In this document: positions 16,041 through 62,180 of the stretch, piece by piece
Layout of the letters: each line of letters starts with the position of its first letter
Numbering within the stretch: the first letter of the stretch is position 1
Source: Callorhinchus milii
Lineage: Eukaryota
Direction of reading: 5' to 3'
Length of the DNA: 64,000 nucleotides
Assembly: GCF_018977255.1 (NCBI RefSeq)
Contig: NW_024704742.1
Coordinates: 61,506,001-61,570,000, forward strand
Made by a program: the position numbers and the translations under genes
The notes under the pieces: generated by a model
The model's input: only the letters and a program-made list of their open reading frames with translations
Database searches by the model: none
Told to the model about the DNA's origin: nothing

Positions 16041-16480
16041 AGGATCGAGTTCAAGATCCTCGTCCTCACTTTCAAGGCCATTCATGGCTTTGCCCCCTCC
16101 TACCTCTCTGACCTGCTGACTCCCTACCAACCTGCCTGCTGCCTCCGTTCAGCGGGCTCCAGCCTGCTCCATGTCTCCCACCCGACCCGTCCTACCATCG
16201 GTGGCCGGGCTTTCAGCCTCTCTGCCCCCACACTCTGGAACTCCATCCCATGGTCCCTTAGCCTCACTTCCTCCCTCGCATACTTCAAGGCTGATCTCAA
16301 GACCCTTCTCTTCAATCGTGCCTTTGGTAACCCTCCCACCTCTCTGCCTTCCCTCACCCCTACACCATCCCTCCCCCATACTTGGGCCTCGACACCTGAC
16401 TGTTCAGCGCTTTGGGACGTCCTCCCGATGTGAAAGGCGCTCTATAAATGTAATTTTGTTTTTGCTGTTTTGTTGTTGTT
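16039..16480 (+). mobile_element. L2 subfamily B, 3' piece of the split copy
   Basis: [35 protein letters not shown], 3' UTR and TTG-type tail; matches 59530-59850 plus 61388-61489. Confidence 0.9.
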
Positions 16481-44640: not shown

Positions 44641-46504
44641 CAGTCCTGGATTTCAGAGGGCAAGGAAATTGAAATTACACAATACACAATCATTAAACTT
44701 TACAGTAAAAATCTTGTGAAGCAATTTGAGACCAATGTGATAAGATGCTATATCATGGTTGGAATATTATTACTATAACCTACAATAATATAGAATATAT
44801 AATGGGAAAATAGGGCATTCGACCCAACAAGTCAGTGTCAGTGTTTATACTCCACATAAGACTCCACCCTCTTGCTATTCCCCTCCCATACTCCCTGTTC
44901 TCTTCTCCATCCTGCATACATATACCAAAATCTAAAATATCCAGCAAATAATTTAATTTCAACAAATATGGAGAGCGGCCCCGACAGACACACTGTGACC
45001 ACAAATTCAACTTTTAAACTCTTAGCAGTTCAGCCCATATATCATAAGATTACAGCAAGTGGATTAGCTCCCAAGTGTTCTTTACTGTATCCAAATGTAC
45101 ATTGGTACCCAGCCAGTCACCTGACAGACAGCACATCTTTTGCTGGAATTTTCTGCACTGCAATGTTACTCAGTATGCAGTTCATGCAGCGTTTCCTGTG
45201 TACTGCCTTTTTCCATTTCAAACATATTTAGAAGGCAGAGCTTTCATGCACAAGATGAAACAACTTGTTTGCATTACAAGCTTGTGCAATGTGATTTTGT
45301 AAAATTAACTGGCAACAGCATTTGGTTAGTTAGACTTTTAAGCATATGGGTTGTTCAGATTCAGTGGCTATTTTTTTTAAATTTTACGGGTGGTGGGGGG
45401 AGCAAATCATATGTGATGTGATATTTATCACCGTTATATGTAACATTATCTTTTAATAGCTGCTGCTGATAATTTTGCTAGTTGTTTCTAAGATAAACTC
45501 TCGCATTGTGTTCCCTTGTCTGTGGATTCAGATTAGTGGAGGCGAAGATGGAGTTTTTTTAAATTTTTTTTTACAGATTTTCCTGATCTTGTATGGGATA
45601 CGCGAGTAAAGCTGATTAATCTGAATTCAAAATACTTACTTTCAATCTAATCACAAACTGGGGATTAACTGTTGCTTGCAGTTTCTCCAGTTTAATTGAA
45701 GCCTGAGAGAGATCATGTCAGAGCTCAGATATGATCAGCTGTTATCTCAGTTTGACAGCAGCTTCTTTTTGTCTCAGCAGCTACGACTCTTTCAAGCACC
45801 GTCAGTTTTGGATCACAGAGGACCTTTTTGTCTTTCTATCTCCTGCTGTGATGCCAGCTTTTCGTGCAGCCTTCACGTTTTCATGATACATTCACAACTT
45901 GTATAACTTTCCAAGTAACCCATTCACAAGAGATGCCCCTGATTTTACTTATTTGGTCTGTTTGATCTCGTCTTTCTTGAAACACCAACCCTTCCATCTA
46001 ACAATTGTTTTGCTTGGACCTGTTAATGACTTTCGGATTGCATTAAACAGAATTTTGTGGAGGAGCAGTGAAACACCGCTCTCAGAAACAAAGATGGCAG
46101 CACAAGCTAACAAGAACAATAAAATAATATTTACATTTATATAGCATCTTTCACATTGGAAGAATGTCTCAAAGCTCTTGAACTGGGGATGGGGCCAAGG
46201 GGAGTGAGAAGGGAAAGGCAAAGATGAATGAAAACAAAAGGGTGCGCTGCACTGTCAGAGATGTTAAACCAGGTCCTGATTGCTTGTTCCAGTGGAATAA
46301 AGACGCATGGAAATGCCCATTAGTTCTGGGTTGTAGTCTTCAGTAGTAAGACTCTTGTCTCCCAGTGATAAGTCTACTCGGTCAATTCCCAAAGATAAGA
46401 CAGGCAAGCTGATCAATTGTCAATGGTGCACTGGAGTACCATGGATCTGCCTGGCTCTAGTACTAAACTGATAATAAACTTTACATTTGATATAGCACCT
46501 TATC

Positions 46505-47645
46505 ACCGTCGGCCACTCTATCCTCATCCACCACCTCTCCTTTCACCTCAACCTTCACGGTTCTGTCCTTGACTGATTCAGATCATATCTCTTACCCCGC
46601 CTTCACTTCATCTCCACAAACAGCTTCCCCTCTAGCCACCACACCGTCTCGTGTAGCGTTCCTCAGGACTCTGTTCTTGGTCCCTTCCACTTCAATATCT
46701 ATATGTTCCCTCTTGGTGACATCATCCACAGATATGGGGTCAACATGTATGCGGATAACACCCAACTCAACCTCTCTGCCTCCATCCTTGACTCCAGGAC
46801 CACTGCTGTCCTGACAGAATGTCTGTCGGACATCAAGTCCTGGATGAGAGCTAACTTTCTTCAGTCGAACGTCAACAAGACCAAAGTTCTTCTGATTGGT
46901 TCCCGTCAACGCCTCCTGACCTCAGGCACTGACAGCATCACCATCCATGGTTGCACACTCCACCTTACTAAGCCAGTCTGGAACCTTGGTATCTTGTTTG
47001 ACCCTCAACTATCCTTTCTACCCCACATCTGCGCCATGACCCACTCTGCCTTCCCCCACCTCAGCAACATCGCCCGGCTCCGCCAATGTCTCACACCGCA
47101 GGCCGCCAAAATCCTCATACATGTTTTCATTACATCGAGGCTCAACTATGCAAACCCACTGCTTGTCGACCTCCCCAACTTCTCCCGCCATAGGCTGCAG
47201 ATCATCCAGAACTCTGCAGCCCATGTCCTCTCCCACACTAGACTCCCCGACCCTATCACCTCAATCCTCGCCCAACTCCACTGGCTTCCCATCACACAGA
47301 GGATACAGTTCAAGATCCTGATCCTCACCTTCAAAGCCCTCCATGATCTTGCTTCCCCCTACCTCTGATACCCACAGGATGGCGAGGCCATGAATGAAGA
47401 AACATTTAGTCAAGAACTTTTTTTTGGATTGGCCAACACTACTGTCGACTGTGAGCTCCAAGTGAGGAGTTTGTGGGGAGGAGGAATTTGCTTCACGTTC
47501 CCGCCTCACTCACCCCATTATCAGCCACTCTGCCCCCACCCTCTGGAACTCCATCCTGCAGTCCACCTCGCCCTCTCCCTTGCCTCCTTCAAGACCCATC
47601 TCAAGACCCTCCTTTTCGACCGTGCTTTCGATCACCCTGCTTCCT
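46505..47645 (+). mobile_element. L2 RT fragment with foreign filler
   Basis: PLGDIIHRYGVNMYADNTQL..HWLPITQRIQFKIL; non-L2 insert at 47368-47488. Confidence 0.9.
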
Positions 47646-49111
47646 CCCTGTTTCATGTCTGTGTCCATGTTCAACATAAAATCCACATCCATGGCCAAGA
47701 ATAATCATTGTCACTCTGCAATGAGTGCTCTCTGACATACTGATTTTCTGATGAAGGAAGATTTCAGTGTATGTTCCAAATTGGGTACACAATTGTGAAG
47801 GGATCAGCCAAGAATTTTTCTGGCGTCAGTCTTGAGAAGAGACTGAAGTATTTCCACTATTTACTTTTATATCAAAGTGGTGCAAATGCTCTACTGACAT
47901 TGTACATCATGATTCACTTCAAAATATAAACTGTATTTTGAATATCGATTCAGCTATTTTCTCATCAGGGATCTAAGACTTCATATTTGTAAGCTTATGA
48001 CTATTGTCTTCAAATTTTAAGTTGTGTAAAATTTTGGGCTAAATGTCTTATACAGTATCCATTTTTTAATTTTGAGGGTGATTGCCCATAGTAAAAGAAC
48101 AGAAGATTGGCTTTTGATTTATTTTATAAAATTTTGCAGTGTTCATTTTTAAAATAGCAGGCTTAAGTTTAGAAATCTGTGGAAATTTCATACCCTATTA
48201 GGATGAATAGAACATTGAAAAACATCATTAGCTGTGAACTGACAGTGTTATGTACAGTTGTATGTGTTAATAAGCACCCTTTCTACCTCACTGAAAGCTA
48301 TCACAAATCTTTGAAATGGAATCACTGGAATGAAATGATTCCCACAATATTCCAAGGTCATGTTTCATCTTTGGAAAATTAAAGGATTGCTTTCAATGTA
48401 TGTAAATTGTGCTATTGCTTTATTATTTTTATTCTGTACGATAATCAAAGGAATGAAAGAAATACTGTTTGGCAGGTTTTGTTTGTTGTAAAGTTCTTTA
48501 GCTTTATGTTTTAATTGGTCATCTCCAGCTTGTGTAATGAATTATTTACTATCGTAAACCAAGTGAGTGAAATTGCTGAGCGTTACTGGTAGCAACTGCT
48601 CAGAAGCAATGCTTTTTGAGGGTCTATCAGGGCTCTGGGATCATGTAATCATGTATAGATGGTTGCAGCAGAATCAGCCACAATGCAAGTAAACCTAATG
48701 GAATACAGGATGAGTCTGTCACAGCTATGAGCATATTATTATTATATAAAAACAGTATTACGTTCTCTGAAACAAATGTTCACATAAATGTAGGTTTGAA
48801 ATTGGATTTGGAGCAGTAAAAAGAAAGCAGTCATTCTCTGACAGGAAACACCAGAGTTATTCTGTTCACAGAATACAATCCCTTCCATTCTCAAAAAGAT
48901 TTGATTCAATAGATTAACAGTGTGTATATGTGTGTGTTTGTGAGAGGAGAGATCAGGATGGGGGAAAAACTTACGTAGGAATTTTAGAAACACTAACCCT
49001 TCATACCTCTGTCATAGACCATTTTATGACACAGCACTTTCCCAAATTTCACAACACTACCTTCTCGCTATTTGATATGACAGCAACCAAGGTTCTTTGT
49101 TCATTGCTCTT

Positions 49112-53974: not shown

Positions 53975-55370
53975 GGTCAACCTGGCTTAAATCAAACTAC
54001 CTGGCTTAAATTGAAGTTAACGGTTCATCATCAGACCTGGCTGGAACTTATCAAATCCTACAACTCTGCCCTCGCCTCTGCTAAATAGTCGTTCTACTCC
54101 AAGACAATCTTGGAAGCCAAGGACAACTCCAGGCTCCTCTTCTCCATCACCAACCGGCTCCTCCACCCACCCTCTCATGTGTCACCCATCCTCACCTCAA
54201 ATGCTAACTATGAGGTGATACTGGACTTCCTCAAATCCAAAGTCGAGTGGATCTGCTCAGTTGCCTCTGCCCACCTCCACTTCATTTCCACAAACGGCTT
54301 CTTCTCTAGGCCCTGCACTGTCTTGTGTGTCGTTCCTCAGGGCTCTGTCCTTGGTCCCCTACTCTTCAATATTTACATGCTCCCTCTTGGTGACATCATC
54401 TGCAGACATGGGGTCAACTTCCACATGTATGTGGATGACACCCAACTCTATCTCTCTGCCTCCACCGTTGACTCCAGGACCACTGCTGTCCTGACAGAAT
54501 GTCTGTCAGACATCAAGTCCTGGATGAGAGCCAACTTTCCACAGCTGAAAGTCAACAAGACCGAGGCTCTCCTGATTGGCTCCCGTCAGCGCCTCCACAC
54601 CTCAGGCGCATCACCATCCATGGTTGCACACTCCACCTTACTAAGCCAGTCCGGAACCTTGGCATCTTGTTTAACCCTCAACTATCCTTTCTACCCCACA
54701 TCTGTGTTATGACCTGCTCTGCCTTCCCCCACTGGCTCCGCCACTGTCTCACACCCCAGGCCGCCGAAACCCTCATACATGCTATCATCACATCGAGGTT
54801 TGACTATGAAAACTCCTTGCTTGTCGGCCTTCCCAACTGCTCCCTCCATAGGCTGCAGGTCATACAGAACTCTGCAGCCTGTATCCTCTCGCACACCAGG
54901 CTCTGTGACCCTATCACCCTATCTTCGCCCGATCCCACTGGCTTCCCAACACACAGAGGATACAGTTCAAGATCCTGGTCCTCACCTTCAAAGCCCTCCA
55001 TGGTCTTGCTTCCTCCTACCTAACACCCTACCATCCTGTCCGTTCCCTCTGCTCAGCTGGCTCCAGCCTGCTTCACATCCCCCGCCTCGCTCTCCCCACC
55101 AGTGGCGGGCAGGCCTTTAGCCACTCTGCCCCCACTCTCTGGAACTCCATCCTGCAGTTCGCCTTGCCCCCTCCCTTGCCTCCTTCAACACCCATCTCAA
55201 GACCCTCCTCTTCGACTGTGCTTTCGATCTCCCTGCTTCTTCCCCTGCCCTCCACCCTCCCCGAATCCAACCCCCAGGTCGGGTCCGAAAAGCTGACTGT
55301 CCAGCGCCTTCGGATGTCCTCCCAACGTGAAAGGTGCTATACAAATGTAATTTTGTTGTTGTTGTTGTTG
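53975..55370 (+). mobile_element. L2 with internal deletion
   Basis: AKDNSRLLFSITNRLL joined at ~54270 to [29 protein letters not shown]; (TTG)n tail. Confidence 0.92.
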
Positions 55371-58317: not shown

Positions 58318-59850
58318 AGCCCATCTTAAACCTCCATGAAGCCTACCATCTGTTCCCTGGATCCCATCCCCACCCCTCTTCTTAAATCCCAGCTCCACCT
58401 CCTTGCCCCACTACTCGCCGACATCATCAAGCTCTCCCTGTCATCTGGCACTGTTCCTAACCCCCTCAAAACAGTCACTATCACCCCCACCTTGAAGAAA
58501 CCTTCCCTTCACCCATCACAGTTATCCAGCTATCGGCCCATCTCAAACCTCCCTTTTCTAACCAAGGTCCTTGAAAGAGCCGTTGCCTCCAAGCTTCGCT
58601 CTTTCCTCTCAACTCATTCCCTCCATGAACCCCTCCAATCGGGTTTCCGTGCTGCCCGCAGCACGGAAACTGCTCTGGTCAAGGTCACAAATGACATCCT
58701 GACCATGTGCGACCAGGGTTCCCTCTGCCTCCTCGTCTTCCTCGACCTCTCGGCCGCCTTTGTCACCGTGGACCATTCAATCCTCCTCCACCACCTCTCC
58801 TTCCACCTCAACCTTTAAGGTTCTATCCTTGACTGGTTCAGGTCCTACCTTTCAAATCGCCTCCACTTCGTCGCAACAAGCGGCTTCTCCTCCAGCCCCC
58901 ACCACCATCTTGTGCAGTGTTCCTCAGGGCTCTGTCCTTGGTCCCCTCCTCTTCACCCTCTATGTGCTCCCCCTTGGTGATACATCCGCAGACATGGGGT
59001 AAACTTCCACATGTATGCGGATGACACCCAACTCTATCTCTATACCTCCACCCTAAACTCCAGGATTACTGGCGTCCTGACCGACTGCCATTCCGACGAA
59101 GGACAACTTTCTCCAATTCAATGTCAGCAAGAACGAGGCCCTCTTGATTGGCTCACGCAAGCGCCTCCACCCCTCTGGTGCTGGCTGCAAACTCAACCTC
59201 ACTAAGCCAGTTAGGAACCTGGGTATCTTGTTTGACCCTGAACTGTCCTTTCTCCCCCACATCCGCGCCATGACTGGCACTGCCTACCACCACCTCCGCA
59301 ACATTGCCAGATTCCGCCACTGCATCACCCCTCAGGCTGCCGAAACCCTTACCCATGCATTCGTCACCTCAAGGGTTGATTACGGAAACTTCCTCCTCAT
59401 CGGCCTTCCCAACTCTTCCCTTCACAAGCTGCAGATCATCCAAAACTGCAGCTTGTGTACTCTCGCGCACCAGGCTCCGTGATCCCATCACTCCCACCCT
59501 CGCCCGACTCCACTGGCTCCTCATCCCCCAGAGGATCGAGTTCAAGATCTCATCCTCACTTTCAAGGCCATCCATGGCCTTACCCCATCCTACCTCTCTG
59601 ACCTGCTGACTCCCTACCAACCTGCCAGATCCATTCTCTCAGCGGGCTCCAGTCTGCTCCATGTCTCCCGCTCGACCCGTCCTACCATTGGTGGCCGGGT
59701 TTTCAGCATCTCTGCCCCCATTCCCTGGAACTCCATTGCATGGTCCCTGCACCTCGCTTCCTCCCTTGCCTCCTTCAAGACCAGTCTCAAGACCTTCTCT
59801 TCGATCGTGCCTTTGGTCGCCCTCCCACCTCTCTGCTTCCCTCACCCCTA

Positions 59851-60298
59851 TACTCCTTATTTTCGGCCATAAGTTGCTTCACCAGCCGTTTATTCTCTTC
59901 ATTGCTACACCGTTCAGCATTGACTAAATTCACCGCTCCCTGCTGGCTGTCCACCACAATTCCCAATTGTCTTATTTGATATTGATAATTTCCTTCTACC
60001 TCTCTCCATCTTTTTAACTGATTTTCCATTTCCTTAAGTTTTTTGTGGGTCCCCAACCATCCTCTCCACATGGCGTACTTGACTAAAGATCTGCAACTCT
60101 TTCCTCCTTTTTTTATTTCTCCCTGCGTTACCTGATCCTCTATCCATGTCACTCCCTGTTCACAGGTTTTGGTGACCCCTGGATGTTCTATTTCTAAATG
60201 ATCGGCCTTCTGCCCTGGGTTTTTGCATAAGTCTTTCTCGTACTGTTGCAACTACTTTTTATTGCTTCTCTCGTGTTCGTCTCTTTGGATTTATCCAT
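59851..60298 (-). pseudogene. gag-like N-terminal ORF fragment (one frameshift, truncated)
   Basis: AAAATGG start at 60298 (MDKSKETNTREAIKS), 1-nt loss near 60252, then LQQYEKDLCKNPGQ..WRGWLGTHKKLKEMENQLKRWREVEGNYQYQIRQL..NEENKRLVKQLMAENKEY. Called gag from its position after the PBS, not from a recognised motif. Confidence 0.65.
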
Positions 60299-60316
60299 TT
60301 TAACCAAACACAACAG

Positions 60317-60529
60317 AAAAACTCTCCCTGAGTTTTTATCTTTTGATTAAAAGAACTCCCTGAGTTTTATCCTCACAACTCCCCGAGTTGACACTTCAAC
60401 AAGACAACCTGAAAACTTCGCCGAGTTTTCTTTGGTGGTTCCCTGAACCAGCACTCCAATCAAAACTCCCCGAGTCTTATTGAATAACGACAAACTTCGC
60501 CGAGTTTGTTTTTGTGACTCCCTGAGTCA
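60317..60529 (-). repeat. Array of eight short stem-loops in the retroelement leader
   Basis: Hairpins at 60317-37, 60354-66, 60376-90, 60411-30, 60436-50, 60462-78, 60490-509, 60515-29; shared core UC-(AGG/GGG/GGC)-GA. Confidence 0.85.
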
Positions 60530-60604
60530 ATATCCCTTTCTCTTGACCCCTGGCCTTTCTTAGTTACTGATGACAATAATCTCTATCACTTGTCATGCAT
60601 ATCA

Positions 60605-60622
60605 CTTCCTTCGTGGTCGCCA
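60605..60622 (-). other. Primer-binding site, tRNA-Arg(TCG)
   Basis: TGGCGACCACGAAGGAAG: the first 15 nt match the complement of the vertebrate tRNA-Arg(TCG) 3' end (..GUCCCUUCGUGGUCGCCA, recalled); begins 3 nt after the LTR CA. Confidence 0.85.
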
Positions 60623-60625
60623 ATT

Positions 60626-61387
60626 TGTTGGGATTTCCGATGCCGAGGTTCAATAATGACCTGACAATCCAATTAAGGTGTAATAAGAGATTTATTAATC
60701 AGAGTAACACATATAAAACTAGTAAAATATTACTGGCACTACAAGTAACAGAAATTATACTACCAGTTTTGGAGCAGTCAGTCAGTTGCGATGGATTCAG
60801 CACCTTCTCTCCGATGGTTCGGCTGCCCTCTTTGTCTGGCTGGATTGTCCGCCTTACTTGACTAGAGTCAGGGTAGTTATACTTTTTCTACCTAGGGATC
60901 ATCAAGCATCTTAGCACGTACCCAACATACTCGACCCTTGCACATCCCTGTACCCATATCTTCTAGATAAGCAGACACTTTTGAAGCAAAGCAGCTTCCT
61001 CATTATTCTTCAATGCAGGACATCTTGCTTCTCCCTTCTAAGGCCGGAGCCTGTCTCTGTCTGATAGAAACATTTAATATGATCGGTACGTGTTCACAGA
61101 ATACTGAGCAGCTTTACTTAGGTGCCCTCATGGAATGCAGATTTCCTGGGTCCTTCTTGAAGCCTGTTCTATGCCTTCTCTCACCATCACAACCGACAGA
61201 CCGTTGACCTTGCAGAACCAGGATGGCTTATTCTGCCAATTCCTAAAATGTTAGTAATTTCTTTCTCCCCTGTTTCCTACCGCCATGCATATATGGGTAT
61301 TAATATACACACACATATATATATATTCACTATTAATTCTTCTATTGCTCTTCTTACAAACTATATTAAAATCAATCTTTTTTAACA
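60626..61387 (-). mobile_element. 5' LTR (762 bp)
   Basis: Minus strand TGTTAAA...CCCAACA; TATAA at 60881-60877; AATAAA at 60696-60691. Confidence 0.85.
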
Positions 61388-62180
61388 CACCCCTCCCCCA
61401 TGCTCGGGCCCTGACACCTGACTGTTCAGCGCTTTGGGATGTCCTCCCGATGTGAAAGGCGCTGTATAAATGTAATTTTGTTGTTGTTGATATTCCATTG
61501 CCAAACATGTCACTTTGGAAGCAGCTTAGTCTACCCCCTACCGACCCCCACTCCATAGGAGGCAAATCAACAGTTGGCCTTTTGACATACCAAAGCACAG
61601 GTTTGAGCCCACACCAGGTGGATGCAGGTATCAGTGAGCTTCCCAGTCAACAGCACAGATCAGCATGAAATGAGTGAGTGGTTGGTCTTACCAAGGGAGG
61701 AACCCAAAAAGGTTCATTGGGCACTCAATTTAGTGGGTTGTATATTTGGAGAGAAGTGGGTGGTGGGCCCTGTTTATCTTGTGCTGTTTATGGCTCTTTT
61801 TTGAGGGAATAGAGAAGTTATATGGAGATCTTTTTAAGATTTTACTTGCCTTAAAGGTGCTATACAAATGTAATGTTGTCGCTGTTATTGTTCTACTTAT
61901 TTACTCTGGAACCAGAGGACTGTTCCAGCTTGATGCCAGGTCAACTTTAATTATGTTACCATGATTCTGCAAACCCAGGTTGCTTTACATGTTTGGATCA
62001 AAGGAGTCCTAACATGGACCCCTGTTGCCACCCATGTTAATACCTCCCTCCTTTATCTCCCATTATAACTATCATCTATTCCTTTCCATTTCAGGTAGTT
62101 TCTATTCTTTTTAACCAATTACATTAGCTTGTAAATTTGATGTCAAATACTTATCCAAAAGGGCTATGCAACAATCTACC

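Follow-up and report, generated by a model that had tools for sequence, protein, structure and literature searches.

The leader of a truncated LTR retroelement in Callorhinchus milii hosts a row of short hairpins whose stems covary around a constant G-rich apex. The covariation exceeds that of shuffled and slid controls, and swaps of stem arms agree with it. The array is on the minus strand at positions 60317-60529 of the window, the term used here for the entire 64,000-nt stretch of DNA analyzed (GCF_018977255.1, NW_024704742.1, 61,506,001-61,570,000, forward strand). As a tentative explanation, possible but somewhat short of probable, we propose that these hairpins constitute a multivalent Gag/NC-binding packaging array that would act in cis in the genomic transcript of the element.

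The copy in the window is dead, decayed and truncated, and all that it retains of coding sequence is a remnant of gag. Its 5′ LTR spans about 60626-61387 on the minus strand, starting with TG and ending with CA. Sequence reading in the minus sense located a TATAA at 60759-60755 and an AATAAA at 60696-60691, which is the order expected within an LTR. The 765-nt stretch 61390-60626 is 80.6-86.2% identical to the LTRs of the sister copies C2, C3, C5 and C7, and in C2 the two LTRs of the pair both match it. The primer binding site (PBS; TGGCGACCACGAAGG, 60608-60622, minus strand) lies 3 nt past the LTR end. We regard this PBS as real since its complement, combined with a generic T-loop motif, has a single match in the 991-Mb genome, and that place is called a tRNA-Arg(TCG) gene by ARAGORN. 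The gene, with a 3′ end complementary to the family PBS, is located at L052:1448-1521. A PBS-proximal hairpin, UGACAA ... UUGUCA (60571-60595, minus strand), is present in all family copies and stands outside the repeated array. The gag start codon is at 60298-60296, and the decayed gag remnant occupies 59852-60298 on the minus strand. The reading frame from this ATG closes early; a 154-aa ORF (60251-59787) lies in a different frame and matched no Pfam family. The homology of the window copy to its family stops near 59852, and its gag therein ends before the point where a zinc knuckle (zf-CCHC) would be encoded. A gag homology search using a 210-aa ORF and longer proteins gave no match at E<=0.001.

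The surroundings of the element contain other repeats. RT fragments at 54110-54712 and 58336-58818 were considered as parts of the LTR element and rejected, since they are on the plus strand and belong to a LINE-like repeat instead. Three related LINE-like fragments are found on the plus strand at 46500-47650, 54110-55244 and 58336-59494 of the window; two of their ORFs match RVT_1 with E of about 1e-13, and one fragment adjoins the truncated gag of the LTR element. An interspersed repeat of ~100 nt with a GTT-rich tail occurs at 61396-61494, 55271-55369, 16366-16467 and about 25 more places in the window, and one copy of it adjoins the 5′ end of the LTR.

A genome search for other members of the family returned seven single loci, on contigs 1, 2, 3, 5, 7, 17 and 30, as well as one element fragment present three times on contig 22 at a spacing of 3462 bp. 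The family is therefore low in copy number, with about 9 loci and one tandem triplet. The contig 22 fragment (L013, L014 and L016) consists of U5, an altered PBS and three hairpin units, and is part of a 3462-bp tandem unit with at least 3 copies. The only copy with both LTRs is longer than 5 kb; this is C2, whose LTR pair is 94.8% identical over 443 nt, with the 3′ LTR cut short and a purine-rich tract (PPT) adjoining its start. A single family copy runs from the PBS to the purine tract and the start of the 3′ LTR, with 3.8 kb between them. In the sister copy on contig 1 (L039), the U5 end is inverted about 90 nt upstream of the array, so its 5′ side has been rearranged.

Four decayed sister copies were examined for coding content through 65 ORF pieces, each 40 aa or longer. 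Two of these pieces contain a zf-CCHC domain that scores above the curated Pfam threshold (L035:9605-9997, E 2.8e-8; L030:3-350, E 4.1e-5) and one more has two sub-threshold coiled-coil matches, while no protease, RT, RNase H or integrase was found among the 65 in Pfam. The family thus looks gag-only, although this is not certain because the copies are decayed and one alone spans PBS to PPT. In plants, the TR-GAG elements are non-autonomous LTR retrotransposons with a gag ORF only (PMC4350172). The family described here is similar in that it has an LTR, a PBS, a PPT and a zinc-knuckle gag and that protease, RT and integrase were not detected in 4 decayed copies (PMC4350172). It differs from TR-GAG in its animal host genome, in the length of its one copy with both LTRs (over 5 kb) and in its conspicuous leader structure; for TR-GAG1, no significant leader structure is reported (PMC4350172).

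The sequence-only reading had placed eight hairpins in the minus-strand sequence of 60317-60529, between the PBS and gag. All eight were recovered at those places, and the order of PBS (60622-60608), array (60555-60317) and ATG (60298) agrees with its description. An additional hairpin missing from its list, H0 (GGCC-AGG-GGUC, 60545-60555), has a 4-bp stem and the common loop type, and a homologous GGCC..GGCC stretch occurs in sister copies. From the PBS side towards gag, all on the minus strand and with predicted energy and in-context pair probability in parentheses, the listed hairpins are H1, UGACUC-AGG-GAGUCA, at 60515-60529 (-5.3 kcal/mol, 0.08); H2, ACAAACU-CGGCGA-AGUUUGU, at 60490-60509 (-4.7 kcal/mol, 0.80); H3, AAGACUC-GGG-GAGUUUU with one G-U pair, at 60462-60478 (-3.6 kcal/mol, 0.66); H4, UGGUUC-AGG-GAACCA, at 60436-60450 (-5.0 kcal/mol, 0.96); H5, GAAAACU-CGGCGA-AGUUUUC, at 60411-60430 (-4.2 kcal/mol, 0.61); H6, CAACUC-GGG-GAGUUG, at 60376-60390 (-4.3 kcal/mol, 0.62); H7, AACUC-AGG-GAGUU, at 60354-60366 (-1.7 kcal/mol, 0.02), which is marginal; and H8, AAAAACUC-AGGGA-GAGUUUUU, at 60317-60337 (-5.6 kcal/mol, 0.76), which ends 18 nt before the gag ATG. 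The predicted stability of each unit is weak, from -1.7 to -5.6 kcal/mol for H1 to H8. When folded in a 401-nt context, six of the eight showed mean pair probabilities of 0.61-0.96, while H1 and H7 were not predicted to form.

The hairpins had been divided into two loop classes, RGG and CGGCGA. This division did not hold up, as a CGGCGA hairpin can be taken for the same unit if its triloop is GGC and a single A is bulged. In the copies, direct reading found a bulged A after GAG in several RGG units as well, and hairpins of the two kinds can be read as variants of one unit. A module of ~79 nt with three hairpins is duplicated within the window array (34 nt, 85%); TRF did not find a tandem repeat in the array. 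An Rfam search in evalue mode over 59800-61500 matched no family to the array region; sub-threshold matches to mir-297, in a TG/TA-rich stretch, and to sR17 were taken as chance. In addition to the local hairpins, the minimum-free-energy fold and RNAalifold with 4 copies both predicted an 11-bp long-range helix on the minus strand between UUCAAUAAGAC (60474-60484), which overlaps the 5′ arm of H3, and GUCUUGUUGAA (60395-60405). This predicted helix (RNAalifold columns 58-68 with 137-147) encloses H4 and H5, competes with H3 and is kept in the four copies with A-U/G-U changes.

We compared the number of hairpins in the 213-nt array with chance expectation. Counting stems of at least 5 and loops of 3-6 with Watson-Crick pairs only, there are 7 hairpins versus 1.05 +/- 0.93 expected, and none of 1000 dinucleotide shuffles reached 7. 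The plus strand shows this excess as well. With G-U pairs allowed, the G+U-rich sense strand has 8 hairpins versus 4.68 expected, a number reached by 8 of 1000 shuffles. The sequence-only reading had also proposed comparing folding energy with shuffled controls on both strands. For the whole region, the energy in the RNA sense was only weakly out of the ordinary (z -1.93, matched by 5 of 200 shuffles), and that on the opposite strand strongly so (z -6.15), indicating that the excess is a property of palindromes without strand specificity. The array is a set of real palindromes, and folding energy alone does not tell which strand matters.

The array is found at the same place of the leader in all nine family leaders examined, with a variable number of units. 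The strict 7-nt anchor UC-RGG-GA is present 2-8 times per leader, for a total of 49 in about 3.5 kb from the nine leaders. The longest array is that of the contig-17 copy; counted by eye and with every kind of unit included, it comprises about 15. Of the 90 hairpins in these leaders, 34 have a GGG or AGG triloop, and the stems vary between units around a fixed CUC-RGG-GAG apex. The window array is a shortened version of those in the contig-3 and contig-1 copies. The contig-7 array is shorter still, with deletions that run from unit to unit, and duplications of two- or three-hairpin modules occur within arrays.

The specificity of the unit was examined with a covariance model and with simpler patterns. 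All 40 model matches with E<0.01 are in leaders and on the sense strand, 39 of them being training units; H1 scored 29.0 bits, and the best match outside leaders, in 212 kb, scored 18.8 bits. Since the strong matches are all on the sense strand through homology, they provide no evidence on the strand. A two-unit pattern applied to the whole genome gave 39 matches (63 for the control), with 11 inside six family loci; by eye, the others are 26 simple tandem satellites and 2 single other sites. A three-core pattern was discarded as a search tool because it was unspecific: its 201 matches were mostly satellites, and the backwards control had 472. On contig 5, units reading UAGCUC-AGG-GAGCUA occur at 26539524 and 26569749, two identical places ~30 kb apart, and may represent another small array with the same apex and different stems.

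Relatives that share about 90 nt of U5 and the PBS were found at one locus with a 60-nt leader and at seven loci of another family. These eight loci have other leaders, in which neither a unit nor a covariance-model match was found. A related LTR family (L018, L019, L022 and L024) is identical at 33 bases surrounding the PBS. Its PBS-proximal hairpin (AAUAAGA/UCUUAUU) is a different one, and its ~215-nt leader has no units; the ORFs of L018 and L024 are decayed and did not provide a better query. The possibility that L018-L025 are tRNA genes was ruled out, as they consist of the U5 and PBS of related LTR families.

These comparisons raise the possibility that the array is a functionless palindromic minisatellite, whose expansion and contraction would result from slippage or template switching at hairpins as the element is reverse-transcribed or replicated. 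Such neutral growth would account for the wide variation in unit number, the unit-to-unit deletions, the duplication of whole modules and the lack of an array in close relatives, and palindromes would fold on both strands as observed. We nevertheless consider it unlikely. Duplication alone copies stems and does not produce ones that differ and yet stay complementary. The question is therefore whether the pairing of the stems has been maintained.

The anchor UC-RGG-GA holds the two innermost pairs only, and the flanks are thus a fair test of pairing. At the four positions outside the anchor, Watson-Crick pairs are formed in 71-86% of the 49 leader units versus 16-21% at 19 control sites, where the anchor occurs in the flanks of seven 17-20 kb contexts on both strands. 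In an ungapped alignment of the 49 units (45 distinct, with orthologous units counted several times), 77.5% of the cells were paired versus 68.4% after shuffling (0/500). The cells changed on both sides numbered 48 versus 22.7 +/- 4.5 in shuffled alignments (0/500), and the covariation score was 0.318 versus 0.181 for shuffled and 0.07-0.18 for slid partners. One stem pair occurs in four standard types: AU 19, UA 8, CG 4 and GC 1. Since orthologous units are counted several times in this alignment, arms were also swapped inside single copies. Within copies, the 3′ arm of the same hairpin is the best fit for each 5′ arm; the swaps that reached the observed value, out of 2000, were 1 for C3, 5 for C2, 27 for the window copy, 51 for C1b, 94 for C17 and 160 for C5. 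The arm swaps and the excess of doubly changed cells argue for maintained pairing and against a neutral minisatellite.

Individual hairpins show the same pattern. The sequence-only reading had remarked that H4 has a different stem with the same AGG loop. H1 and H4 are part of the duplicated module and differ at two pairs, both of which are compensated (GAC-UC/GA-GUC in H1, GGU-UC/GA-ACC in H4). The stem of H6 is CAACUC/GAGUUG in the window and CGACUC/GAGUCG in three copies, with an A-C intermediate in one. Stems with the CGGCGA loop read AAACU/AGUUU in the window and GAUCU/AGAUC in the contig-17 copy. The apex contains a CpG, the decay of which is a G to A change in the loop in 26 units and a C to U change in the closing pair in 5, with 23 units intact, although the units are not independent. 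This asymmetry between the loop and the closing pair is a hint that CpG decay spares the stem, and it too speaks against neutral growth.

Comparisons between orthologous positions gave a different picture. Among four close copies, 68 of 90 hairpin columns are invariant versus 35 of 52 linker columns, so the hairpins are no better conserved than the linkers, as a neutral minisatellite would also have it. RNAalifold on four copies identified 1 compensated pair among 37. The sequence-only reading had held that uncompensated stem-breaking substitutions at neutral rates among copies would refute a structural role. Among dead insertions such as these copies, that comparison has little power, and both the equality of hairpins and linkers and the single compensated pair are what such insertions should show.

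The proposed packaging function would require RNA rather than DNA as the functional form, and we therefore considered the evidence for a strand. The loop is asymmetric, being RGG in the element sense and CCY on the other strand. The G-U pair in H3, which had been taken as a sign of the RNA sense, is real; it does not serve as such evidence, as the aligned unit has a C in C2, C30 and C17 (by eye) and the G-U looks like a change peculiar to the window copy. Among the 37 hairpins with one non-Watson-Crick pair (66 hairpins were found), interior wobbles are G-U in 12 and A-C in 5; the units are not independent, and this lean towards the sense strand is suggestive only. A 746-letter contig with a depth of 25 runs from U5 through the PBS and a shorter array into the gag of a sister-like copy. 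Since the RNA nature of the run was guessed and its contigs have no strand information, this is weak evidence that sister-like leaders are transcribed.

An array of double-stranded DNA sites was also considered, in which a host protein would bind the leader as an enhancer, an insulator or a silencer target. LTR-element leaders are known places for such arrays, and the leader of Drosophila gypsy has a row of 12 Su(Hw) sites. The array here is similar to that of gypsy in being a row of about a dozen short motifs repeated along an LTR-element leader with spacers in between, and copies of its 9-bp core, CTCRGGGAG, are separated by 10-40 bp. The motif is thus repeated and spaced, but conservation is not that of the motif alone. 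The gypsy sites act as double-stranded DNA, for which internal complementarity is not needed, whereas here the flanks covary as stems; flanks outside the core that differ and are mutually complementary are not explained by a sequence-specific site. We also know of no single DNA motif that fits all units. A role as DNA sites is therefore considered improbable.

We return to the proposal of a packaging array. The element would present Gag with a row of short and weak stem-loops, each with a G-rich triloop (GGG, AGG or GGC) that is left unpaired above a closing C-G pair on a CUC/GAG stem top. At each of these loops the zinc-knuckle (NC) portion of Gag would dock, and many sites of low affinity side by side would give high avidity and hence selective packaging of the element RNA. 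A gag-only family would need the enzymes of a helper, and in the competition for particles it would benefit from a multiplied packaging signal. The array would grow and shrink via duplication and deletion of modules of one to three hairpins. With a Psi element it shares the position in the leader, G-rich loops that are exposed by prediction and a family Gag with an NC domain. Docking of Gag/NC is favored by this packaging-signal position, by unpaired G on a small stem, by the zinc-knuckle Gag and by the precedent of HIV and alphaviruses. Several observations argue against packaging. Relatives with the same U5 and PBS do without the array, which makes it dispensable for the wider group; the low copy number shows no packaging advantage; and the folding energy is without a sense-strand signal, the units are weak, and two of them, H1 and H7, are not predicted in context. 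Also to be counted against it are the equal conservation of hairpins and linkers, the single compensated pair among 37, the slight lean of the interior wobbles and the repeated counting of orthologous units in the covariation.

The array could alternatively be a structured RNA with another ligand or role, such as binding of a host protein for nuclear export or stability, or the control of gag translation. This would rest on the same structural evidence as packaging. The last hairpin ends close to the gag ATG, and the predicted 11-bp helix that competes with H3 could act as a switch. For translation control, however, single hairpins at -1.7 to -5.6 kcal/mol are too weak, since hairpins of such stability cannot stop a scanning ribosome. 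In addition, the region has no match to an Rfam family, and repeated G-rich loops beside a zinc-knuckle gag fit NC binding more directly. Roles of this kind have, in our estimate, a low probability.

The sequence-only reading had also named dimerization as a candidate function, in which two genomic RNAs would be joined by kissing loops or by G-quartets. The position of the array does match that of retroviral dimer linkage sites, and the array has many G3-G4 runs. However, kissing would require self-complementary loops, and on direct reading none of RGG, AGGGA and CGGCGA is of this kind; as for G-quartets, the G runs are 20-50 nt apart and confined to hairpin tips. We regard dimerization as very improbable.

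The packaging proposal can be compared with known packaging signals. HIV-1 and HIV-2 packaging needs unpaired guanosines at several sites of the leader (PMC12031250). By analogy, the array would resemble the Psi of these viruses in its location between PBS and gag, in the combination of several sites with unpaired G and in having the NC zinc knuckle as the candidate ligand (PMC12031250). The HIV sites, in contrast, are few, differ from each other and are within one complex fold, whereas the array consists of one small hairpin with a fixed apex repeated 3 to about 15 times, and the two have no sequence homology. The closest match in form is the alphavirus packaging signal. It is described as eight predicted stem-loops with GGG tips, the structure and number of which affect packaging (PMC5869531). 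The signal is in the nsP1/nsP2 region, and the eight stem-loops are those of Sindbis virus. Like the array, it is a series of stem-loops with GGG-type tips; unlike the array, it belongs to an unrelated RNA virus, is inside a coding region and has a different capsid protein as its ligand. Membership of the array in the alphavirus signal was rejected, as the host is an LTR retroelement and there is no Rfam match, and the likeness is one of working principle only. Coronaviruses have repetitive structural motifs (RSMs), short structured repeats described as packaging elements of lineage-specific number and form (PMC8206606). They share with the array the concept of structured repeats, but have other motifs (e.g. 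AA bulges) and belong to another virus class, with no homology to the array.

A literature search of limited scope found no description of an LTR-retroelement leader that carries an array of repeated hairpins. The modular form with many units appears to be new for a retroelement leader; for the principle itself, retroviruses and RNA viruses already provide examples. A stronger version of the packaging proposal is that a gag-only parasite uses a "super-Psi" of up to about 15 units to out-compete its autonomous helper and has arrived independently at the GGG-tip grammar of alphaviruses, in which packaging efficiency depends on the number of stem-loops; we consider this version doubtful.

How Gag chooses one RNA from the pool in the cell is debated, and the current view is that of many weak contacts with exposed guanosines. 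The array shows this multi-contact idea in its barest modular form, with one hairpin repeated and natural variants that differ mainly in unit number. Even if the units do not bind Gag, the array still needs explaining, since complementarity has been maintained in stems whose sequences changed. Should the units bind Gag, the family would offer a simple natural system for the effects of valency, with its copies of 3, 8 and about 15 units as a natural dose series for packaging selectivity. It would also exemplify how a non-autonomous element can compete with its helper, and its array would have converged on RNA-virus packaging signals.
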